DNA of 60,317 nt from a virus. Lineage: Duplodnaviria; Caudoviricetes. The stretch's first letter is position 1. Each line of letters begins with the position of its first letter. The stretch is taken from IMG/VR virus record IMGVR_UViG_3300044841_000118, positions 1 through 60,317 of that record; one strand, written 5' to 3'. Shown here piece after piece: positions 1-54,630 of the stretch. The translations under genes were made by a program, and so were the position numbers. A model generated the notes under the pieces. It saw only the letters and a list, made by a program, of their open reading frames with translations, had not been told where the DNA came from and searched no databases.

Positions 1-627
1 CAGGTGGAGTTGAGTACGCCTGAAATCGCCAACATGACGGCGGCGCACATCCTGCGAAAAGATCGTAATCACCTCAGCCACGAGGACAACAAGCAGGCCG
101 CGCGGTTGTTCAGAGACGCAGCCTACTACGTGGGCAACGATCCGATGATCACGGAAGCGCAGCAAGCTCTCGACCTCATCGAGAAAGCAATTGCGCGGTT
201 GGGAGCGACCATCGTTATCCTCGACAACCTGCACGCGCTCTGCCGAGGGGACAACGAGTTGCGCGACCAAGCATCCGCCAGCCGCCGTATCAAGACTATC
301 GCACAGAGAACAGGCACGAAGTGGGTGGTCGTCTGCCAGCCCCGGAAGGCCGACTCCAAGAACAAGGGCAAGACCCTCCACATCTCCGATATCAAAGGGG
401 CGGGAGCGATCATCGAGGACGCGGACGCACTCTTCACGATCCACCGTAACTATGTCCAGAATCCAGATCCCAATAACCCGCCCATGGACACCTACGAGCC
501 CGAGACAGAAATCCACTGTCTGAAGGCACGTACCAAGGCTGACGGCCCCACGTTCTCGAAGCTGTTCTTCCACGGGGCGCTCGCCACATACGCCGACATC
601 ACTCACATGGAACCTCCTCCGCAATGA
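1..627 (+). CDS. DnaB/T7 gp4-like replicative helicase, C-terminal part (5' end outside window)
   Basis: SF4 motifs IVILDNLH (Walker B), VVCQPRK, DIKGAGAIIEDAD, CLKAR. Confidence 0.85.
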   Translation, partial: QVELSTPEIANMTAAHILRKDRNHLSHEDNKQAARLFRDAAYYVGNDPMITEAQQALDLIEKAIARLGATIVILDNLHALCRGDNELRDQASASRRIKTIAQRTGTKWVVVCQPRKADSKNKGKTLHISDIKGAGAIIEDADALFTIHRNYVQNPDPNNPPMDTYEPETEIHCLKARTKADGPTFSKLFFHGALATYADITHMEPPPQ

Positions 628-824
628 ACCTACACAAGAGACTGCGCACGAAGTCCCTCTTCGACAGATACGCAAGGACGCCTCGCGGTGCCTCTGAAGA
701 AATGATGTACCGGTTCTCGATCACGTTCGAGTTACTTACGGGTGCTTCATATAAGGAAGCCAGACGTAAAGTTCTATGCAAAATACGGCGTAAATTATTT
801 GGATTTTCCGCATCAAAGCAGTAG
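624..824 (+). CDS. hypothetical protein (66 aa, basic)
   Basis: ATGA overlap with helicase stop; lower GC. Confidence 0.4.
   Translation: MNLHKRLRTKSLFDRYARTPRGASEEMMYRFSITFELLTGASYKEARRKVLCKIRRKLFGFSASKQ
790..817 (+). promoter_or_regulatory. ECF-sigma-like promoter (GTAAAT-N14-GCATC)
   Basis: same two boxes at the same 20-nt offset recur at 5764, 11577 (+) and 50732 (-). Confidence 0.5.
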
Positions 825-862
825 ACCCTTCCAAATCTGAAGAACCCGCAGGGAGCACACCC

Positions 863-1060
863 ATGCCCGTACAGGCGAAGAACTTCTTCTTGTTCCGGAC
901 TTTCAACGAGGACGGATCCGTCAAGAACCCTGGGATCAAGTTCCGCCAGTCCTTCGACGCGCCAACCGATGTGGTGCTGATCAATCCAGCTGTTCTCCAG
1001 CAACTCCTGGCGACGACAGCTGTGAACGGACTCATCGACGTATACATCGCTTCCGAGTAA
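863..1060 (+). CDS. hypothetical protein (65 aa)
   Basis: GGGAG RBS; phage-typical codon use. Confidence 0.7.
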   Translation: MPVQAKNFFLFRTFNEDGSVKNPGIKFRQSFDAPTDVVLINPAVLQQLLATTAVNGLIDVYIASE

Positions 1061-1070
1061 CACCCCTTCC

Positions 1071-1205
1071 ATGACACCAGAAACACAACAGCCGCCCCAG
1101 CGCGTGTGGACGAAGCCTGCGCTCACGATCCTCGCCCTTACCCGCGCCGAGCATGGCGCACACGGCGTCGGTGTGGACCACAGCCGTGCCCACCGCAGCG
1201 CCTGA
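1071..1205 (+). CDS. lasso-peptide-precursor-like peptide (44 aa), copy 1
   Basis: MTPETQQPPQRVWTKPALTILALTRAEHGAHGVGVDHSRAHRSA; fills the gap between neighbours; paralogue at 54419-54556. Confidence 0.75.
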   Translation: MTPETQQPPQRVWTKPALTILALTRAEHGAHGVGVDHSRAHRSA

Positions 1206-1215
1206 AAGGAACCGC

Positions 1216-2289
1216 TTGAACATCCCTGCCGCCACTCTCAAGTCCCTGCTGAAGAAACTCTCGTCCGTGCGCTCCGAACTGGTGCTGCTCGATACCGCCG
1301 CTGGCACGCTCTTCGCTGCGGACAATGACATCCGCCTCTGGGTAGAGTCGCCTGCACTGAAGGACGAGTCGGGCGCGGTACTCACGGTGAATGGCCGCCG
1401 GCTCTCCTCCGCCGTCAGCCGGCTCTCGGGCGTCCTCAGCGTGACCCACGGCAAGAAAGGTCTGACCGTCGCCTCCGCTAAGACGCGCTTCGACCTCGAA
1501 GTCACTCCCGGTAAGCTGGATCCCCGTACGGCTGAGAAGGGCGCGACCTACACGCTACCGCTGGCCGAAACCAAAGCGCTGCTCAAGGCTGGCGCCATCA
1601 TCACCCAGAAGGGTCACGCCTCCTACTCCGACATCGTCGAATTACGCGGCGACACGGTGCTGCGGGTTCGCGCGACCAACGAGCGGCGCCTCGCGGTGAT
1701 CTGGGGCGGCCCCTACGAAGGCGAGGCATTCCAGCACCTGATTCCCGTTTCGGTGATCGGCGCGCTGCAGGAGATCCCCGGCGAGTCAGCCGTGCTCACC
1801 GTCAGCGACGCCTTGGTCACGTTCTCGACTACCGACGACCAGGAGACCCGCGTCATCGTCTCCGCCCGCCGGTCGGCCAAGCAGTTCCCGGACTTCGACG
1901 GCATTCTCCCCAAGACCTTTGCCCATGAGGTCAAGGTGGATGCGGCCGCGATGCGCGAGGCACTGGCCCGTGTCGCCCCCTTCATCCCCGCCACCGACCT
2001 CAAGACCGTGCTGGTGACCTTCCCCGGCTCCGAGGTTCAGGTCTCAGCCAGCAACGGCGGTGTGGCAGTAGACGCCGTCCCGCAGATTGACCCGGCCAGC
2101 ACCGAGGACGACCCGTTCGCCGAGACCCCGGCCGCGCCGTACAGACTTCACATGAACCACACCTACCTGAGCGACTTCTTCCAGGCCGCGGAGGGCACGG
2201 TCACCATCGGGCTCAACACCCACCCCAAGCCTGTCTGGATGGACGCCGGGAAGACCAGCGCGCTGTTCACCCTCCAGGTTCCCGCCTAA
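1216..2289 (+). CDS. dnaN: DNA polymerase III beta sliding clamp-like protein
   Basis: three-domain size; motifs VRATNERRLA, QFPDFDGILP, MNHTYLSDF; TTG start after AAGGA RBS. Confidence 0.8.
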   Translation: MNIPAATLKSLLKKLSSVRSELVLLDTAAGTLFAADNDIRLWVESPALKDESGAVLTVNGRRLSSAVSRLSGVLSVTHGKKGLTVASAKTRFDLEVTPGKLDPRTAEKGATYTLPLAETKALLKAGAIITQKGHASYSDIVELRGDTVLRVRATNERRLAVIWGGPYEGEAFQHLIPVSVIGALQEIPGESAVLTVSDALVTFSTTDDQETRVIVSARRSAKQFPDFDGILPKTFAHEVKVDAAAMREALARVAPFIPATDLKTVLVTFPGSEVQVSASNGGVAVDAVPQIDPASTEDDPFAETPAAPYRLHMNHTYLSDFFQAAEGTVTIGLNTHPKPVWMDAGKTSALFTLQVPA

Positions 2290-2337
2290 CACACCGGCGA
2301 CTTTTGCCGCGATATCGCTTTTCAGAAGGTAATCCCC

Positions 2338-3225
2338 ATGAAGTGGAAGTCTCTCCTCCTCGCAGTGGCACTTGCAGTCAGCGCGTCCGCACAGACGGTC
2401 ACCGCGCCAGTTGTCGTCGGAAACACGATTCAGTTCTCCATGACGGACCCCTTGGGCACGTACGCCTACACGATCCCGGTCGTCCTCAGCGTAACCGTCG
2501 GCACCGCCTCCGTGGCCTTTACTCCTGTGCCACCGCCGCCGCCTCCTCCACCTCCGCCCGGTATCACCATTCCCGGAAACGCAATCCAGATCGGCATCGA
2601 GAATCGGACCAACTGGATCGCGGTACACGACGCAGGCACGCCCGGTGCTGTCCAGACCATCGTCAACACCTACAACGCGACGACGGGTGTACGCACGCAC
2701 TCCATGACCTACACCGGCAATGGCGGAACCCGCTGGTCGGTAAGCCTGGGCAGTGCAGCGTACGACACCGTGGCCACCCATTTCGTCTACGACGTGTTCG
2801 TCACATCGCCGAACTGGCTGCAGGTGAAGAACCTGGAACTGGACGCGAATCAGGTGCTGGCGAACGGCGACACGGTCATCTACGGTATGCAGTGCTCCAT
2901 GTGGTCGAACACCTGGGAGTACACCTCCACGGTCGGCGGCACGCACTGGATTCCGAGCAACGTACCGTGTAACTCCACCAAGTTCGCGCCCAACTCGCGC
3001 CACCACTTCCGCCTTGCCTATCACCGCAACAGTGCAGGCATCGTGACCTACGAGGGAGTGGAAGTGGACAGCGTGTACTCGGCGCTGACCGGAGCCGTCG
3101 TCAACGCAGCCAAAGCGCTCGGATGGCCGAAGGGTGACCTACTCTTCAACGTCCAGACCGAAGGTGCTACCGCAGCAGGTACGACCACCATCCTCACGGA
3201 TGGGCTGACGATCTACCGCTGGTAA
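2338..3225 (+). CDS. secreted protein: signal peptide, poly-Pro linker, lectin/ConA-like beta-sandwich
   Basis: MKWKSLLLAVALAVSASA|Q; 10 consecutive Pro; domain paralogous to C-terminus of 29945-31258. Confidence 0.75.
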   Translation: MKWKSLLLAVALAVSASAQTVTAPVVVGNTIQFSMTDPLGTYAYTIPVVLSVTVGTASVAFTPVPPPPPPPPPPGITIPGNAIQIGIENRTNWIAVHDAGTPGAVQTIVNTYNATTGVRTHSMTYTGNGGTRWSVSLGSAAYDTVATHFVYDVFVTSPNWLQVKNLELDANQVLANGDTVIYGMQCSMWSNTWEYTSTVGGTHWIPSNVPCNSTKFAPNSRHHFRLAYHRNSAGIVTYEGVEVDSVYSALTGAVVNAAKALGWPKGDLLFNVQTEGATAAGTTTILTDGLTIYRW

Positions 3226-3583: not shown

Positions 3584-4250
3584 GGTTCTTCCCCCGGAGT
3601 CGCTTGCGATCATCGACCCGGCGGAGGTAGCGCGGCAGACGGTCGTCCAGTTACTGGACGACATCCGCGATCACGAGTACGAGCTGGCCGCCAACTACGC
3701 GCGGCTCGGCGCGGTGCTCTTCGACATCCGCCGCAACCAGTACTGGGACAAATGGGGCTACCTCAGTTTCGGCTCCTACATCCGGGAACTGGCGGACCGG
3801 GTACAGAAAGAGCGGTCACAACTCTACGCGTACATCGGCGTGGCGGAAAAACTTCTGCCGGAGGTAGACGAGCACACGCTGGTCGCGATCGGTATCACCA
3901 AGGCCGGCGAGCTCAAGCGCTTCGTCTCCCAGTCCGGCCGCCGCATTCCTGAGAAGCTGCTGCAGGTAGCGCTCGACGACAAGCGAACCGCCAAGGAACT
4001 GCGCGCCGCGGTGCTCGAAGAGTTGCACCAAGCACCAGACCCGGCGGGCAAGTATTACGAGATCGGCGGGTTCTTTTGCACACCTGATGAGAAGGCAGAG
4101 ATCGATCTGTCGATCCGGATAGCGAAGGGTTTGGATCCAGCTATTCCAAACAACATTCCAGAACATATGCAAATGAAAGAGGTCATGTTGAGGTGGGCGC
4201 GCGAGTTTATCGCCACTTGGCAGGAGGCATTTGAACGTGGAGGAGCTTGA
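3573..4250 (+). CDS. DUF3102-like DNA-binding protein
   Basis: RLGAVLFDIR...WGYLSFGSYI...RSQLYAYIGVAE pattern. Confidence 0.55.
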   Translation: MLVEVLPPESLAIIDPAEVARQTVVQLLDDIRDHEYELAANYARLGAVLFDIRRNQYWDKWGYLSFGSYIRELADRVQKERSQLYAYIGVAEKLLPEVDEHTLVAIGITKAGELKRFVSQSGRRIPEKLLQVALDDKRTAKELRAAVLEELHQAPDPAGKYYEIGGFFCTPDEKAEIDLSIRIAKGLDPAIPNNIPEHMQMKEVMLRWAREFIATWQEAFERGGA

Positions 4251-4803
4251 GCTTACCTGCTATAGGTGCCGCGTCACGAAAGTAGAATCTTTGTTCCACC
4301 GGTGCAAAAAGAACAAGACAGGCCGGCACACGATATGTATCGAATGCTCCAAAATGGAGAAGGCGGCCTACTATCGTTCGGAAAAGGCTGTGCGGTTGAG
4401 AAAAGAACGACAGCCCGAGATTGTAGCTTGGCGGGCACAGTACAACAACAACCCGATAAACAAGGAGAAAAGACGCGACGCACATTACAAACATAAATAT
4501 GGAGTCACTCTAGAAGAGTTCCGTTCCATATTAGAGCGTCAACACCATCGTTGTGTCGTGTGCGGAGAGAGTCCATCCAAGTCTACGCAAAAGAAATTCT
4601 GGAATCTAGATCACGATCACGACACAGACAAAGTTCGGGGTGTGCTGTGCACACCCTGTAATCTCACGCTCGGAGTGGCCAAAGAAAGCATACCTCGCCT
4701 CCAGCGCTGCCTAGCCTACCTCCGATTCCACAAAGGAATGATCAAGGTTCCGGGTCCTTTCATGTACAGCAAGCCTCCCCAAGTTGCGCGTAAGAGTTGG
4801 TGA
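4231..4803 (+). CDS. endonuclease VII-family protein with N-terminal Zn finger
   Basis: YGVTLEEF...CVVC...LDHDH...VRGVLCTPCN; lower GC than flanks. Confidence 0.85.
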   Translation: MNVEELELTCYRCRVTKVESLFHRCKKNKTGRHTICIECSKMEKAAYYRSEKAVRLRKERQPEIVAWRAQYNNNPINKEKRRDAHYKHKYGVTLEEFRSILERQHHRCVVCGESPSKSTQKKFWNLDHDHDTDKVRGVLCTPCNLTLGVAKESIPRLQRCLAYLRFHKGMIKVPGPFMYSKPPQVARKSW

Positions 4804-6236: not shown

Positions 6237-6583
6237 CCGGCGACGAGTACATCAAGGCGCAGATCGCCCGGGCGGCGTGGCTCCGGGCGAAGGAGAACGG
6301 CCCGCTTGCTATGTTGGCAGTCGCCATGGTCGTTCGCAATCTGGAGCGGACGGGTAAGTCGTGGCTTGCGGCATGCGATGAGGTGACCGTGGAATGTTTC
6401 GGCGGCAACCCAGATGTCCGAAACCCAGACTTCCAGAAGTTGCTGTACGGCGTGGAATCGATCTTCGACGGAACCGCGCCCGACAAACTGACCAACGGCG
6501 CAACCCTAATCGGTTATCTCGGGGAGGCGTACCCCGGATACCAGCAGTGCGCTGTCGTCAGCGGCTTGGTGCTGCTGAAGTGA
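6233..6583 (+). CDS. SleB/Hydrolase_2-like cell-wall hydrolase homologue, possibly inactive
   Basis: ARAAWLRAKENG.LAMLAVAMVVRN...DKLTNGAT; expected catalytic Glu not evident. Confidence 0.5.
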   Translation: MTGDEYIKAQIARAAWLRAKENGPLAMLAVAMVVRNLERTGKSWLAACDEVTVECFGGNPDVRNPDFQKLLYGVESIFDGTAPDKLTNGATLIGYLGEAYPGYQQCAVVSGLVLLK

Positions 6584-6711
6584 CGCTGCTCCTTTGCTGG
6601 CGCTGCGGGTACGACACGCGGCTCACCCAGACCACCTGTCCAGAATGTGGACACCCTCTCAAGCCTGTCGCAGGCAGCGATTCCCGGAGACCAAATGCCG
6701 AGAAAATCTAA
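6580..6711 (+). CDS. small Zn-ribbon protein (43 aa)
   Basis: CWRCGY...CPECG; GTGA overlap. Confidence 0.55.
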   Translation: MTLLLCWRCGYDTRLTQTTCPECGHPLKPVAGSDSRRPNAEKI

Positions 6712-7165
6712 GCCCCGCACCCCGGCGCAGCAAGAGCGCGACACCGACCTCCGGCTCCGGCGCACCTACGGCATCACGCTCGCCGAGTACAACGAGCGAC
6801 TGGCCCAGCAGGGCGGCGGGTGCGCCATCTGCGGGAAACCCGCCGCGACCAAGCGCCTGCACACCGACCACTGCCACAAGTTCTCGAAGCTGTTCAAGAT
6901 CGCCCGGTTCAAACTGAAGCACGGTGGGTACCACGCGTCGGCGGAACACAAGACCGACCCCACATCTCGGCTCTTCTACTTCTTCACGGTAAAAGACACG
7001 CGGCAGGAAGCAGTCGCCGAGGTGAAGAAGGAACTGAAGAAACGCAGTGTGAGGGGTATCCTCTGTGCCCACTGCAACCGGGGCTTGCGCTATTACTTCG
7101 ACCGGCCAGAGTTGTTCGTCCGAGCAGCCCAGTACCTCCGCGACTTCGCGGACCGCACCGCATGA
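6695..7165 (+). CDS. endonuclease VII-family protein with internal insertion
   Basis: YGITLAEY...CAICG...HTDHCH...VRGILCAHCN. Confidence 0.85.
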   Translation: MPRKSKPRTPAQQERDTDLRLRRTYGITLAEYNERLAQQGGGCAICGKPAATKRLHTDHCHKFSKLFKIARFKLKHGGYHASAEHKTDPTSRLFYFFTVKDTRQEAVAEVKKELKKRSVRGILCAHCNRGLRYYFDRPELFVRAAQYLRDFADRTA

Positions 7166-7204
7166 TCTACGTCACTCCCTAATCTGCCATTCCCGAGGAA
7201 CCCC

Positions 7205-7471
7205 ATGCCCTCCAAGACACCCCTGAAGCTCAACGGCAAGCCGCTCGAGCCTTCGAACAAGCAGCGCATCCAGCAGGTGATCGCTTCGATCCCGCACGGC
7301 CATCTGCTCTCGACGGCTGAGATTGCCAAACAGGCCGGCGTGCACACCAACGACATGGCCATGAATCACCCGGATTTCCAGGCGCACAAAAGGAAGCACG
7401 TAAATCGCTTGGTTTGGGGTGGCAAAAAAACCATCGACCAGTACGACCAGCAGATGAGCGAGGGTAAATAG
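7205..7471 (+). CDS. small basic HTH-like protein
   Basis: LSTAEIAKQAGV. Confidence 0.55.
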   Translation: MPSKTPLKLNGKPLEPSNKQRIQQVIASIPHGHLLSTAEIAKQAGVHTNDMAMNHPDFQAHKRKHVNRLVWGGKKTIDQYDQQMSEGK

Positions 7472-8652
7472 TGCCTACCACCATTGCAGAACTGAAGCAG
7501 CGCCAGGACGAGAAGGACGCCGCCGGAGCCAAGCTCGGCGAGCAGCACGAAGTCACCGGCAACACATGGGAAGTGTCCATCCCTCGGACGCGCATCTGCA
7601 CTCTGGAGCAGTTGGTCGAACACTGCAAGATCGATCTAAACACCTGGACCGTTAAGAGGTTCGTCGCCAATAAGTGGGAGGTTGGTGCCAAGAACCCGGA
7701 CTCCGGCAAGATCGAGGTCGAGCCGCTCTTCCAGATCAAGGCGTTTCTAGAGCGCCGGGTCGAGGTCGCTGACGCTGTCCAGGAACTGGACGAGTTGAAG
7801 CGGAAGGCTAAGCTCAGCGCAAAACCCTGGGTGTCGATAGATCGGAAGATTTCTCTGCCCTCCGGCAACATGCTTGAGGTCAATCTGCCCGATTTACACG
7901 CGGGCAAACTTGCATGGCAGCAGGAAACTGGCGGCCCGAACTATGACACCAAGATAGCGATCAAAGGGTACTGGGATGCCTTCAACACTCTGCTATCTCG
8001 CGTGAAGCATTTCGAGTTTGAGCAGGTGCTATTCGTGGTCGGCAACGACCTGTTGAACTCCGATGACACAGAAGGGCGCACCAACGCCGGCACACAAGTC
8101 TCCACGGATGTCCGCTACCAGAAGACCTTCGGTACTGTTCGGGACACGATGATTGAGTCGATAGAACGCCTTCGGCGCATCGCTCCGGTCAAGGTGGTAA
8201 TGGTTCCGGGAAATCACGACAAGCTGTCGGTCTGGCATCTTGGCGACTCCCTGGAGTGCTACTTCCACAAGTACGAAGACGTGGAAATCGACAACCGACC
8301 GCGTCAGCGCAAATACCATCAGTTCGGCCTCGTCGGTCTCATGTTCTACCACGGTAACAAGGGGAAGAAGGCAGACTACCCCCTAACCATGGCAACCGAG
8401 ATGCGGAAGATGTTCGGCGCCACCAAGTTCAACGAGTGCCATACCGGACACCTTCACAAATCATGGGCCGACGAATTTCACGGGGTCATCGTCCGTATCC
8501 TGAGCGCGCTCTGCCCCGCCGACGCTTGGCATTCGGAGAACAACTTTATCGGTAACCAGCGTACGGCCGAAGCCTTTGTCTGGAACAAGGACGAAGGGCT
8601 CATCACTATCGCGAGATACACGGCAACCGAAGAAGACGAGGAAGTCGCATGA
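7471..8652 (+). CDS. calcineurin-like metallophosphoesterase
   Basis: DLHAGK, GNDLLN, PGNHD, YHG, HTGHLH. Confidence 0.85.
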   Translation: MPTTIAELKQRQDEKDAAGAKLGEQHEVTGNTWEVSIPRTRICTLEQLVEHCKIDLNTWTVKRFVANKWEVGAKNPDSGKIEVEPLFQIKAFLERRVEVADAVQELDELKRKAKLSAKPWVSIDRKISLPSGNMLEVNLPDLHAGKLAWQQETGGPNYDTKIAIKGYWDAFNTLLSRVKHFEFEQVLFVVGNDLLNSDDTEGRTNAGTQVSTDVRYQKTFGTVRDTMIESIERLRRIAPVKVVMVPGNHDKLSVWHLGDSLECYFHKYEDVEIDNRPRQRKYHQFGLVGLMFYHGNKGKKADYPLTMATEMRKMFGATKFNECHTGHLHKSWADEFHGVIVRILSALCPADAWHSENNFIGNQRTAEAFVWNKDEGLITIARYTATEEDEEVA

Positions 8653-9140: not shown

Positions 9141-9691
9141 TTTTACTCGGCGTGATCGGAAGAGCTCAACAGGGGAAAAGTACCCTCGCTAATGCGATCG
9201 TCACCCACGCCGCCACCCGCGGTTACGGTGCCCGCGTCTACGAGGTCTCGCACCTCATCCTCCGCTACTGCCAGAAGGCCGGGCTGATCGAATCGTGGAA
9301 GACCCGTGCGGACTGCACCGAGCAGGACGTCCAGACCCTGATCGACGTGGGACACGAGAAGCGCATCGAGGACCAGAACTACTGGCTCGACTCCATCGCC
9401 GAGATGATCCGGCTGGACGCGGCTGACGTAGCTATCATCCCGAATGTCCGTGCAGATAACGAATGTGCCTTCGTACGCGAAAAGGGTGGCTCCATCCTCC
9501 GAGTGGTGAGCACGAACCCGGATGGCACGCCGTACATCCCGCGCGACCGTGACCCCAACAACCGCTTCGAGACCATCTCGATGACGCTCACCCCGGACTA
9601 CGAGATCAAGACGCCACGCGGCGCCGAAGCCCTCGCCAAGTCCTACGCACACTCCCTCTTCGACTACCTCGCTGCCAAGGCTGGCGAGTGA
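9137..9691 (+). CDS. deoxynucleoside monophosphate kinase
   Basis: P-loop GRAQQGKST; IPNVRADNE (DxRFxNE-like). Confidence 0.8.
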   Translation: MILLGVIGRAQQGKSTLANAIVTHAATRGYGARVYEVSHLILRYCQKAGLIESWKTRADCTEQDVQTLIDVGHEKRIEDQNYWLDSIAEMIRLDAADVAIIPNVRADNECAFVREKGGSILRVVSTNPDGTPYIPRDRDPNNRFETISMTLTPDYEIKTPRGAEALAKSYAHSLFDYLAAKAGE

Positions 9692-9969
9692 GAAAGCCGC
9701 GGATCGTGGTAACTGCCGGCTTCTACGCCAAAGCCAAAGAGACGTGGGCAACGATGGAGGCGCGACAATCTATGTCTGAAACCCTGCCCGCCAACTCCAC
9801 AGTCGAGCGAATGAGTGAAGTGCTGAACGACCTCCGGGCCAAAGTCCAGAAGAAGTACCTACTCGACGAGCCGTATATCGCTAAGTTCCAGAACCTGACC
9901 TTCGTGGCACCGGTTCTCCGCGACACGATCATTTGCGACGTGAGCATAACTACAGAGGTGAAAGCATGA
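9688..9969 (+). CDS. hypothetical protein
   Basis: operonic GTGA overlap. Confidence 0.55.
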   Translation: MRKPRIVVTAGFYAKAKETWATMEARQSMSETLPANSTVERMSEVLNDLRAKVQKKYLLDEPYIAKFQNLTFVAPVLRDTIICDVSITTEVKA

Positions 9970-12338: not shown

Positions 12339-12372
12339 CGCCTTAGTCATGCGCCGGTCGCCTTAGTCATGC
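12339..12372. repeat. integrase arm-type direct repeats CGCCTTAGTCATGC x2
   Basis: 12339-12352 and 12359-12372; partial copy TAGTCATGC at 12583-12591 on the other side of the core. Confidence 0.7.
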
Positions 12373-12492
12373 AAAACGGGTCCAGACACGCATCTAGGTT
12401 CGCTGTATTCGCATTTGGAAGATTCCTCGATGTGCCCAGAACCCGCATGAACACTGGGAAATCCAGTTAAATCAAGGGGATTTTACAAAGGC

Positions 12493-12512
12493 TGGCGGAG
12501 AGGGAGGGATTC
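12493..12512 (-). mobile_element. attP core (3' end of tRNA-Ser)
   Basis: minus strand GAATCCCTCCCTCTCCGCCA = T-loop to CCA of tRNA-Ser; ~100 bp upstream of integrase. Confidence 0.85.
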
Positions 12513-12608
12513 TGATCACAACCACTGCAAGTACTTCATTCTATAGATACTTGACAGGAACACACAGCCCGTAGTACTACAATAGTCATGCAGTTCTGAA
12601 GGAGACGC

Positions 12609-13805
12609 ATGGCTAACCGAACCTGCACCCTGATGCTCTACTGCCGCACCGAGAACGGGTGGCGCCGCTTCCCTGCCGCCTTTGGCAAGAACGGGCGCAT
12701 CCGGCCCAACTACGCCGAGGTCGCAGGCGAGCAGGTCCACTTCGATACCGCGCGGTACGAGATCCGCTTCTACGCTGGCCGCAAGGTCCAGTTCAAAGCC
12801 GTCCAGGGAAGCGCAAAGGACGCGCTGGCAGCCCGCCGCCGGCAGGAGGCTCTGCTAGTCGCCCGGGACTCGGCCAAGGCCTCTGGGGCCACCCTGGTCG
12901 AGAATGAGCCCACCCGGAAGAAGCTGACGCAGGAGAAGCAGCGCTGGCTTGAGGGGCTGGAGGCCCGCGGAAAAGCCGAGTTCATCAAGACCGCGCGGGT
13001 GGCGATCGACGACTTTCTGGCCGCCACGGAACTGATCTACGCCGACCAGATCACCGCAGACGCCATGCTGGTCTTCTACCGGGTTCTGCGGAAGCGCGGC
13101 AACTCGGCGCGCACCCTCTACAACAAGGTGATCAACCTCTCCGCCTGGTTCAAGGACATGGGGCTGGAGGTCAAGTCCATCGTCAAGCACAAACCGGTCT
13201 ACACAGAGCGGGAGGTCGACGTCTACAGCCCCGAAGAGATCGGCGACCTGTTCCGCGCCTGCCGCAACGACTACCAGCGCGCGCTGTTCGACGTGCTGCT
13301 CAAGGCCGGGCTGCGCGAGCAGGAGGCGGTCAATCTGGAGTGGACGAACGTCGACTTCCGGGCCAAGGTGCTCCGCGTCCGCGAGAACGTACAAACCGGG
13401 TCATCCATCAAGGACCGGGCCGAGAGATCCGTCCCTATGCCTGACAGTCTGATCGAGTCATTGCGCGCCTGGCGGGAGAAAAGGCCCAAGGCACACCTCG
13501 TCCTCGGCACCGCGACCGACCGGCCCAACAACAAGATGCTGCGGACGCTGAAGCGGGTGGTCAGCGCGGCTAAGCTCAACTGCGGTCGCTGCGATGGGTG
13601 CACCACCCGGGACGAGTGCCGCCGCTGGCGCCTGCACAAGTTCCGGGCCACCTACACCACCCGCCTGCTGCAGAACGGGGTCGATGCCCGAACGGTCATG
13701 GCCTACACGGGGCACGCGGATTTAGCGACCGTGCTGCGCTATCTGGCGCCGGCGGAGGACGCCCCGATGCAGTCCAGGATCAGCAGCATCGAATGGGTGC
13801 GGTAG
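12609..13805 (+). CDS. int: tyrosine integrase
   Basis: GLREQE (R), LHKFRATY (HxxR), GHADL...RY. Confidence 0.95.
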   Translation: MANRTCTLMLYCRTENGWRRFPAAFGKNGRIRPNYAEVAGEQVHFDTARYEIRFYAGRKVQFKAVQGSAKDALAARRRQEALLVARDSAKASGATLVENEPTRKKLTQEKQRWLEGLEARGKAEFIKTARVAIDDFLAATELIYADQITADAMLVFYRVLRKRGNSARTLYNKVINLSAWFKDMGLEVKSIVKHKPVYTEREVDVYSPEEIGDLFRACRNDYQRALFDVLLKAGLREQEAVNLEWTNVDFRAKVLRVRENVQTGSSIKDRAERSVPMPDSLIESLRAWREKRPKAHLVLGTATDRPNNKMLRTLKRVVSAAKLNCGRCDGCTTRDECRRWRLHKFRATYTTRLLQNGVDARTVMAYTGHADLATVLRYLAPAEDAPMQSRISSIEWVR

Positions 13806-37452: not shown

Positions 37453-37530
37453 TGGCTGGCAGAGTAGGACTCGAACCTACATAGGCCGCATTAACAGTGC
37501 GGTTCTCTGCCCAGATTGAGATATCTGCCA
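37453..37530 (-). tRNA. tRNA-Asn (GTT)
   Basis: acceptor TGGCAGA/TCTGCCA, G73, CCA; anticodon arm CCGCA-CTGTTAA-TGCGG; T-arm GTAGG-TTCGAGT-CCTAC. Confidence 0.95.
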
Positions 37531-53805: not shown

Positions 53806-54015
53806 ATGCAGACCTTCACCGGACAAAAAGAGACAGCGGCAACGGTAGCAAAAGCACAGCGCGCACTCATCGAGCAGCGTGCATACGTCATCAGCGTGTG
53901 GGGCAATCTCTGGATTGAGCAGTACGACCCAAAGCACTCGGCAGCCGTTGACGAACTGAAGAGACTGCGTCGGATCTTCGCCGTTAAGCAGGAGGCACTC
54001 AAGTGCGGACAGTAA
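53806..54015 (+). CDS. early hypothetical protein
   Basis: GAGGAG RBS. Confidence 0.7.
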   Translation: MQTFTGQKETAATVAKAQRALIEQRAYVISVWGNLWIEQYDPKHSAAVDELKRLRRIFAVKQEALKCGQ

Positions 54016-54422
54016 CGGAAGTGACAGACGTACTCGGCACGTCAAAGCCTGTTGCCCGCTATTACGGGGACGGCAGTTTCGATTGCCCGCACTGCTCCTA
54101 TCCTGTGCGCGCGGATCAAGGCCTGAGTCTCGAAGCACATAACCCGTGGTGCATCGCAAACCCTGCTTACCCTGTGGATTCGGCGCTCCAGTTTGTCGCG
54201 GATCGTGAGCGTAAGGAGCAGGAAGAAGCAGAGCGCCGGCGCAGTCGCGATGCGTCTATCGCGCGCGCCGAGGAATACCGGCAGTCCCAGGAACGCACCA
54301 GAACTGCCAAGCTGTTGGACGCGAAAGCGCGCGGACTCTGCGTTACCTGCTTAGTCCGCAGTGATTTTCGCAAGGAAGTGAAGCATCGGAAGGCTTGCCC
54401 CCTGACTGAGGCAACAGCATGA
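54003..54422 (+). CDS. early Zn-finger/coiled-coil protein
   Basis: GGAGG RBS; CPHC...HNPWC; CVTC...H..AC. Confidence 0.7.
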   Translation: MRTVTEVTDVLGTSKPVARYYGDGSFDCPHCSYPVRADQGLSLEAHNPWCIANPAYPVDSALQFVADRERKEQEEAERRRSRDASIARAEEYRQSQERTRTAKLLDAKARGLCVTCLVRSDFRKEVKHRKACPLTEATA

Positions 54423-54556
54423 CCCCTCACATCCCCTTGCCTGCTACCCCAAAGAAGGAGTGGAAGCGGCCGGCGATCGAAATCTTGGCGGTATCGCGCG
54501 CCGAGCATGGACACGGGCATGGCTCCGACAGTGTCTGGCGTCACAAGAGCGGGTGA
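54419..54556 (+). CDS. lasso-peptide-precursor-like peptide (45 aa), copy 2
   Basis: MTPHIPLPATPKKEWKRPAIEILAVSRAEHGHGHGSDSVWRHKSG; GAGG RBS; ATGA overlap. Confidence 0.75.
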   Translation: MTPHIPLPATPKKEWKRPAIEILAVSRAEHGHGHGSDSVWRHKSG

Positions 54557-54602: not shown

Positions 54603-54630
54603 TTGACACGTTGTTAGATTGTGCTATTCT
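54603..54630 (+). promoter_or_regulatory. sigma70 early promoter 2
   Basis: TTGACA-N16-TATTCT with extended TG. Confidence 0.75.

Follow-up and report, generated by a model that had tools for sequence, protein, structure and literature searches.

Two predicted lasso-peptide precursor genes on a phage contig that carries no recognisable lasso enzymes

Why should a phage carry genes for lasso-peptide precursors with none of the enzymes that mature such precursors beside them? The question arises from IMG/VR record IMGVR_UViG_3300044841_000118, which was analysed in its entirety as one linear window of 60,317 bp (60% GC; CheckV completeness estimate 56). A first-pass annotation, made from the letters alone, had marked a 44-residue open reading frame (ORF) just upstream of dnaN as copy 1 of an orphan lasso precursor. 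The ORF encodes exactly the residues that were quoted, the gene that follows it is a phage sliding clamp (phrog_947), and the second copy implied by that wording was located, in a six-frame motif scan, as a 45-residue paralogue towards the far end of the window (Table 1). Both genes sit in the plus-strand early or replication region. As judged from sequence, both small ORFs are genuine genes encoding divergent members of an Acidobacteriaceae-wide family of phosphorylated, paeninodin-like lasso precursors; the identity of the peptides is firm.

The evidence for this identity comes first from a profile built on 25 distinct peptides encoded in cellular clusters, with the phage sequence excluded, and run against the 1585 six-frame ORFs of at least 20 residues in the window. 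It matched only the two copies, at E 2.1e-12 for copy 1 and 8.2e-12 for copy 2, the next best ORF standing at 0.4. The simplest alternative, that copy 1 is a chance ORF and not a gene, draws on the many spurious ORFs that a window of 60% GC contains, but it has to contend with this selectivity, with the existence of a paralogue and with the position of copy 1, which fills an otherwise empty 155-nt gap between a 65-residue ORF and the sliding-clamp gene. The two copies are 51% identical, and their local BLOSUM62 score of 105 compares with 24.3 +/- 5.4 for shuffled sequences, none of 5000 shuffles reaching the observed value. The profile and shuffle results effectively refute the chance-ORF explanation, to which we attach a negligible probability.

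Searches beyond the window placed the phage peptides in a large and unnamed family. When 1.84 billion representative proteins were searched exhaustively with a profile, four peptides of 52-53 residues were recovered (E 6e-5 to 5e-4), one of which belongs to a sequence cluster that includes a protein from an Acidobacteriaceae metagenome-assembled genome (MAG). A word-indexed search based on a 16-row alignment yielded 135 proteins (clusters at 90% identity; E <= 1e-3). Among the matches listed (120 of 135), nearly all are 51-54 residues long and any given name is 'hypothetical protein'; most cellular relatives come from Acidobacteriaceae and soil metagenomes. Two proteins of 771 residues (P0018 and P0019), filed in the 90% cluster of the 53-residue P0005, were rejected as unrelated oxidoreductase-like proteins brought in by a clustering artefact. 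The curated models respond weakly to these peptides. The comparison with lasso-precursor models proposed by the first-pass annotation succeeded in part for copy 2, which matches NCBIfam NF033524 (paeninodin family lasso peptide) at E 2.6e-4 and 20.7 bits, below the cut-off of 27, and failed for copy 1, which gives no match to this model at E <= 10. Apart from NF033524, NCBIfam yielded no match to PqqA or to any other precursor of a peptide synthesised on ribosomes and then modified after translation (RiPP) for either copy, and Pfam none for either at E <= 10. Four of five cellular homologues score 13.8-15.8 bits against NF033524 and the fifth has no match. The cellular family is missed by current curated models, though collections of lasso precursors assembled for PMC13381572 and PMC10368454 may already include it.

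The lasso assignment, as the first-pass annotation had surmised, is upheld by what surrounds the cellular homologues. A scan of species-representative genomes located nine loci, seven of them labelled Acidobacteriaceae, including one in the isolate Acidobacteriaceae bacterium KBS 83 (locus L002). In KBS 83 the peptide gene is followed directly by a gene for an asparagine-synthase-like protein (PF00733, E 4.9e-33) whose best NCBIfam match is to NF033535, the model for the lasso peptide isopeptide bond-forming cyclase (E 1.3e-75), with a score that does not reach the very high cut-off set for it. On the upstream side are an HprK-related kinase and an NTP_transf_5 nucleotidyltransferase fused to a lasso B2 peptidase domain, the latter scoring 74 bits against NF033537, above its cut-off of 33. 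A PqqD-family RiPP recognition element (RRE) scores above cut-off inside the cluster in all five genomes tested; in L002 it is encoded at about 6579..6875 on the minus strand, and an earlier candidate for this role, orf85 (9570..9824), was rejected. Context was counted by tblastn with the KBS 83 proteins. The cyclase stands right after the peptide at 9/9 species-representative loci, with the kinase at 8/9 (the ninth has only 464 nt upstream) and the nucleotidyltransferase-B2 protein at 8/9. It also stands right after the peptide in all 14 strong places (E < 1e-10) found in 12 of the 301 genomes sampled from the same family, 12 of these 14 having the kinase inside a 1.5-kb flank, and right after the peptide on 8/8 metagenome contigs. 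Homologues beside lasso genes, the check that the annotation had put forward, were thus found throughout: no cellular orphan precursor was seen among loci with a readable flank, and lasso precursors are normally inseparable from their enzymes, lying directly upstream of the cyclase in 31 cellular loci or places (9 + 14 + 8, some being one locus found twice) and at one further locus, L054, described below. Exactly one precursor per genome was found in five of five cluster-bearing genomes.

Some further features of these clusters were observed in passing. The B2 fusion is encoded at L002 by a single 596-residue ORF (6841-8628) with NTP_transf_5 at its N-terminus, and the fusion is kept in eight of nine loci. 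Two genomes (G052 and G258; loci L020 and L022) hold two clusters each, one member of each pair having the cyclase with no HprK-like kinase in the 1.5-kb flank. At L031 (genome G185), two tandem small ORFs at about 1543 and 1885 represent a different WxxPxL-type family with the leader W-[TA]-[SA]-P-T-L-T-V-V, ending in serine; neither cyclase nor kinase was hit within their 1.5-kb flanks. Near-identical precursors and clusters also occur in MAGs labelled Ktedonobacteraceae (L008/L015, G180) and Acetobacteraceae (L005), which suggests mislabelling or mis-binning; G180, despite its label, was drawn as a member of the family of KBS 83.

At the level of the peptide, the 16-row alignment has eight columns that never vary, and neither phage copy has lost any of the eight (M1, W13, P16, I20, L21, A26, D36 and S43 in copy 1 numbering). 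Four of these columns, W, P, I and L, belong to the W-x-x-P-x-(I/L)-type leader described at first pass, which is present in both copies: W13-T-K-P-A-L in copy 1 and W15-K-R-P-A-I in copy 2 satisfy [Y/W]xxPx[L/V/I/F/A], the motif bound by discrete lasso RREs (PMC13381572). The motif tryptophan is nearly invariant in paeninodin-like precursors, where it stands at -15, as does W-15 of PbaA (PMC13381572). With positions counted from this tryptophan (W+n), all 118 database members carry the tryptophan itself and alanine at W+13, W+14 is glutamine in 78 and glutamate in 37, and an aspartate or glutamate acceptor is found in 117, at W+22 in 113 and at W+23 in four. The conserved serine is penultimate in 100 of the 118 and last in 14; it is penultimate in both phage copies, which also keep a histidine four residues from the end and a tail of eight residues, the mode of the family. 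In kinase-bearing lasso clusters a conserved C-terminal serine receives its phosphate while the precursor is still linear, ahead of the action of B2 and the cyclase C, and a nucleotidyltransferase homologue can further decorate the phosphorylated residue (PMC9266682).

The point at which the leader would be cut can be read in two ways. A lasso ring is closed on an aspartate or glutamate at core position 7-9. With the tryptophan at -15 the rings would be His1-Asp9 in copy 1 and His1-Asp8 in copy 2, and with the tryptophan at -16 they would be Gly1-Asp8 and Gly1-Asp7; either register places the aspartate within the ring range in both copies. Among the 118 members W+15 is variable (12 residue types) and W+16 is glycine in 114. 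Because a conserved position followed by a variable one and then by glycine is the pattern expected at -2, -1 and +1, Gly1-Asp8 seems more likely than His1-Asp9 for copy 1, in a register that is ambiguous. The core beginning at histidine with Asp9, as first proposed, therefore survives as one of two readings, the glycine at W+16 fitting the other at least as well. Threonine at -2 is absent from both copies, its place being taken by alanine in the W-15 register and by glutamate in the W-16 register. The alanine pointed out at first pass is indeed present, but it is no oddity of the phage, since W+13 is alanine in every family member. A functional lasso precursor with isoleucine at -2 has been described, and precursors with residues other than threonine at this position have been seen in silico in Acidobacteriaceae (PMC10368454).

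None of the cellular enzymes has a recognisable counterpart in the window, in agreement with the first-pass annotation: PF00733, PF13471 and PF05402 found no cyclase, B2 peptidase or RRE, and tblastn with ten proteins encoded in or around the L002 cluster returned nothing at E <= 1e-3. The 65-residue ORF upstream of copy 1 and the 139-residue ORF upstream of copy 2 were considered as hidden RREs and rejected, being without Pfam, PHROG or Atlas support; the Atlas scores of the 139-residue ORF (<=0.85) are leads only.

The two copies share derived leader traits, namely a short N-terminal leader (12 and 14 residues before the tryptophan, compared with mostly 21-22 in cellular members), alanine at W+4 (in 118 cellular members, valine 96, methionine 18, alanine 3) and arginine at W+12. 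Because these traits are common to both copies, and both are intact at only 51% identity, the comparison suggests an old duplication within the phage lineage followed by continued selection and long maintenance. A near-consensus sigma-70-type promoter (TTGACA, 16-nt spacer, TATTCT, extended -10 TG) lies at 54603-54630, between the end of copy 2, which it directly follows, and the next gene, and this makes copy 2 the last gene of its transcription unit.

That the genes have been kept by selection is disputed by one alternative, in which they are pieces that the phage acquired from a host cluster, now neutral or used for a purpose unrelated to lasso peptides. The absence of a visible Shine-Dalgarno sequence for copy 1 would fit such passengers, as would neighbouring genes without assigned function. 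Yet two copies that have diverged to 51% identity are both still open and retain every column invariant across the 16-row alignment, and no remnants of cluster enzymes are seen in their flanks. The packing is also tight: copy 2 and the gene before it have overlapping start and stop codons (ATGA), and the ribosome-binding site of the clamp gene, AAAGGA at 1204..1209, overlaps the stop codon of copy 1. The clamp starts at TTG 1216 and not at ATG 1153, its homologues P0024 and P0025 (72 and 71% identity) beginning at the equivalent residue, and copy 1 therefore does not overlap it. Moreover, the ORF is retained in related phages from other soils. Contigs of soil runs X2, X3 and X4, which come from different studies, cover the copy 1 region at about 95-97% identity, and among the differences listed, each resting on a single low-depth contig, codon 23 is the only site of change within the ORF, with isoleucine for leucine in X2 and X3 and a synonymous substitution in X4. 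We regard the passenger explanation as quite improbable. One X3 contig joins 825 to 1064 through a low-stringency joint, skipping the 65-residue ORF and keeping the peptide ORF and the clamp. The ECF-like promoter (extracytoplasmic function type) that the first-pass annotation placed ahead of copy 1 was not recovered: the stretch 500..2500 is free of sigma-70-like sites, and a GAAC-N14-19-CGT motif is absent both from 600..1075 and from the DNA upstream of copy 2.

How, then, might the peptides be used? We tentatively propose that a host lasso cluster matures the phage precursors in trans, to which we give somewhat less than an even chance. A wider reading, to which we likewise give somewhat less than an even chance, has the phage reprogram the host's pathway by supplying substrate genes only, the two precursors being either matured in trans by host B1, B2, kinase and cyclase or jamming that machinery. 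Under maturation in trans, the phage would express the precursors in the early phase of infection or during lysogeny, its host having a lasso cluster of its own; host B1 would capture them through the W-x-x-P-x-(L/I)-x-I-L leader, the conserved near-terminal serine would be modified, B2 would remove the leader and C would close the ring on the conserved aspartate. The host would then produce lasso peptides specified by the phage, its RiPP pathway having undergone lysogenic conversion through the supply of substrate alone. Full processing is favoured over a pure decoy because the aspartate, the serine and the tail length are retained. An order-wide scan with a phage-only profile (401 genomes, eight with a match) found L054, whose short precursor has five residues before the tryptophan, alanine at W+4 and glutamate at W+6 and is flanked upstream by a kinase gene and downstream by a cyclase gene; cellular machineries for phage-like leaders therefore exist. 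A predicted complex of KBS 83 (L002) B1 with copy 1, computed from the B1 alignment and the phage peptide alignment, scored 0.48, but a control with chain 1 replaced scored 0.54, and the prediction therefore weighs neither for nor against binding.

Several observations weigh against maturation by a host cluster, beginning with the leader itself. At W+6 the phage copies carry threonine and glutamate, whereas all 118 cellular members have aspartate, and at W+12 both carry arginine, which none of the 118 has; these departures could weaken or alter recognition or cleavage. Because of them we keep two alternatives alive. In one, the peptides are decoys: the leader would bind the host RRE (B1), processing would be poor, and the host's own lasso peptide would be blocked or retuned, as counter-defence or to silence a signal. 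RREs bind the leader alone at nanomolar affinity, without help from the core (PMC5067487), and it is an acknowledged difficulty that RiPP pathways can cross-recognise one another non-productively (PMC13381572). The arginine three residues before the putative cut and the loss of the otherwise invariant W+6 aspartate fit poor processing, and two copies among early genes would give a high dose. A leader decoy, however, would have no use for the aspartate acceptor, the near-terminal serine, the histidine four residues from the end or the family tail length, all of which are kept, and we judge it distinctly unlikely.

In the other alternative the phage encodes its own lasso enzymes in a part of its genome that was not recovered, the ORFs being the precursors of a dispersed phage-borne cluster. 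The record is linear and only about 56% complete, and for that reason the orphan status noted at first pass holds for the contig and not for the whole phage. The contig starts inside a primase/helicase gene, and the missing DNA therefore adjoins the early region that carries both copies, next to copy 1; this incompleteness counts against a phage that supplies substrates alone. The alanine at W+4, the absence of aspartate at W+6 and the arginine at W+12 would also fit co-evolution with a distinct RRE or B2, and complete phage-borne RiPP clusters exist, for example that of sublancin on SPbeta (bioRxiv 10.1101/2020.10.01.322628). Nevertheless, cellular precursors lie immediately upstream of the cyclase, while neither phage copy has an enzyme within 50 kb on its sequenced side; four enzymes would need about 5.5 kb; and L054 represents cellular machinery for leaders of the phage type. 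We consider phage-borne enzymes unlikely, though a serious contender.

The phage and its host supply points on both sides. In favour of host maturation, the phage is temperate, as its integrase gene shows, and an attP-like stretch just upstream of that gene corresponds to the 3' end of host tRNA-Ser genes. About 21 of the 301 genomes of the KBS 83 family match this stretch over 25-34 nt (94-100%), and in one of them (L045) the matching segment overlaps tRNA-Ser(CGA) at its 3' end. These matches are consistent with a temperate phage of KBS 83's bacterial family, in a link that is not specific. A 13-nt direct repeat with two occurrences lies at about 12342-12375. When ten lasso-bearing genomes were tested, however, the attP core match was only 15-23 nt, and two of the ten best matches (G067 and G258) fall beside the core and not on it. 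The large terminase, searched for as a prophage link to the host, was not found in the 301 genomes. No other phage with such a peptide emerged from viral-contig scans with two alignments, whose narrow patterns make this weak evidence, or from tblastn of copy 2 against GenBank phages, the 45-residue query being likewise weak evidence of absence. Relatives of the phage were also sought among viral contigs, by scans with the clamp, with the helicase fragment and with a clamp alignment, and none emerged. The lack of a visible Shine-Dalgarno sequence ahead of copy 1 counts against host maturation as well. Other products of the window are an exonuclease, a major head protein, a portal, a large terminase, a deoxynucleoside-monophosphate-kinase-like protein and a metallophosphatase.

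Table 1. Positions of the two precursor genes, of landmarks within copy 1, of other features of the window and of the soil-run contigs covering copy 1
Feature	Coordinates	Strand	Remarks
DnaB-like primase/helicase, C-terminal part, truncated by the contig start	1..627	+	PF03796 E 5.7e-11; phrog_239 E 9.1e-18; profile positions 403-582 of 801
65-residue ORF upstream of copy 1	863..1060	+	No Pfam, PHROG or Atlas match
Copy 1, 44-residue lasso-precursor homologue	1071..1205	+	ATG..TGA ORF; cellular-only profile E 2.1e-12
Leader recognition motif W-T-K-P-A-L-T-I-L, residues 13-21	1107..1133	+	Fits [Y/W]xxPx[L/V/I/F/A]
Putative core, residues 28-44 if W at -15 (from Gly29 if W at -16)	1152..1202	+	Probable cleavage site, from the motif register
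Asp36 codon, putative macrolactam acceptor	1176..1178	+	Core position 9 or 8; invariant column
Ser43 codon, penultimate, putative kinase target	1197..1199	+	Invariant column
Phage sliding clamp (DNA polymerase processivity factor)	1216..2289	+	phrog_947 E 2.6e-29
Endonuclease VII gene, early region	4231-4803		PF02945 E 4.4e-21
Endonuclease VII gene, early region	6647-7165		PF02945 E 1.9e-16
attP-like stretch, 3' end of host tRNA-Ser genes	12486..12524	.	Just upstream of integrase
Integrase (tyrosine)	12609..13805	+	phrog_1 E 6.9e-38
tRNA-Asn(GTT)	37453-37530	-	Inside structural gene block
139-residue Cys-rich ORF	54003..54422	+	TGA overlaps copy 2 ATG (ATGA); no Pfam or PHROG match
Copy 2, 45-residue paralogue (W15, Asp37, Ser44)	54419..54556	+	Six-frame motif scan; cellular-only profile E 8.2e-12
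Soil run X2 contig	1064-1457		21 differences in 394 nt
Soil run X3 contig	1064-1280		7 differences in 217 nt
Soil run X4 contig	1094-1244		5 differences in 151 nt

Compared with known systems, the family is closest in outline to the paeninodin-like precursors (PadeA and PbaA; NF033524), with which it shares a WxxPx(L/I) leader, an aspartate acceptor 7-9 residues into the core and a conserved serine at the C-terminal end. The clusters of its cellular homologues also hold a discrete PqqD-type RRE, B2, a cyclase, an HprK-like kinase and a nucleoside triphosphate (NTP) transferase, the last two being typical secondary enzymes of paeninodin-like biosynthesis (PMC13381572). It differs in that the phage copies fall below the NF033524 cut-off, the serine is mostly penultimate and not terminal, threonine is missing at -2, B2 is fused to the nucleotidyltransferase in the cellular clusters, and the phage copies have no enzymes nearby; furthermore, the present family is acidobacterial, whereas paeninodins are described as restricted to Bacillota (PMC13381572). 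BsfA of Bradymonas sediminis likewise belongs to a kinase-bearing cluster outside Bacillota and has a YxxPxL-type leader, a Gly1-Asp8 ring and a residue other than threonine at -2, but its tyrosine is at -17, its -2 residue is isoleucine and its kinase target is Ser3 (PMC10368454), in contrast to the tryptophan at -15 or -16, the alanine or glutamate/glutamine at -2 and the C-terminal-end serine found here. The linear polyphosphorylated peptide (LPP) pathways of Bacilli, for which cross-talk between precursors and non-cognate RREs has been raised, resemble the present system in their [Y/W]xxP leader and in the RRE, HprK kinase and NTP transferase that they have in common with lasso pathways; their leader carries tyrosine and their clusters lack a cyclase (PMC13381572), whereas here the residue is tryptophan and a cyclase accompanies every cellular homologue examined.

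Among phages, the nearest parallel is sublancin on SPbeta, where RiPP precursor genes travel as the cargo of a temperate phage and could alter the secretions of the lysogen; in phages of that type the precursor travels with genes for modification, immunity and export (bioRxiv 10.1101/2020.10.01.322628), whereas the recovered 60 kb described here hold precursors only. The word 'lasso' occurs 0 times in the available part of that survey of phage biosynthetic gene clusters. Within the literature covered, which comprised open-access papers and bioRxiv, we found no phage-encoded lasso precursor, no enzyme-less phage RiPP precursor, no virus that exploits the leader recognition of a host RiPP pathway and no dispersed phage-borne lasso cluster.

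Given how closely lasso precursors and their enzymes are otherwise associated, enzyme-less precursors in a phage point either to viruses that exploit the RiPP leader code of their hosts or to phage-borne lasso clusters that are dispersed. As a by-product, a large family of lasso precursors from soil, rich in histidine, has been delineated; it comprises the 135 clusters found above. The mechanism is directly testable, as KBS 83, a cultured relative of the putative hosts, carries a complete cluster. If the proposal holds, an infected or lysogenised cell would secrete lasso peptides specified by the phage, or would stop making its own, and viral hijacking of RiPP maturation machinery through the leader-peptide code would have its first example.

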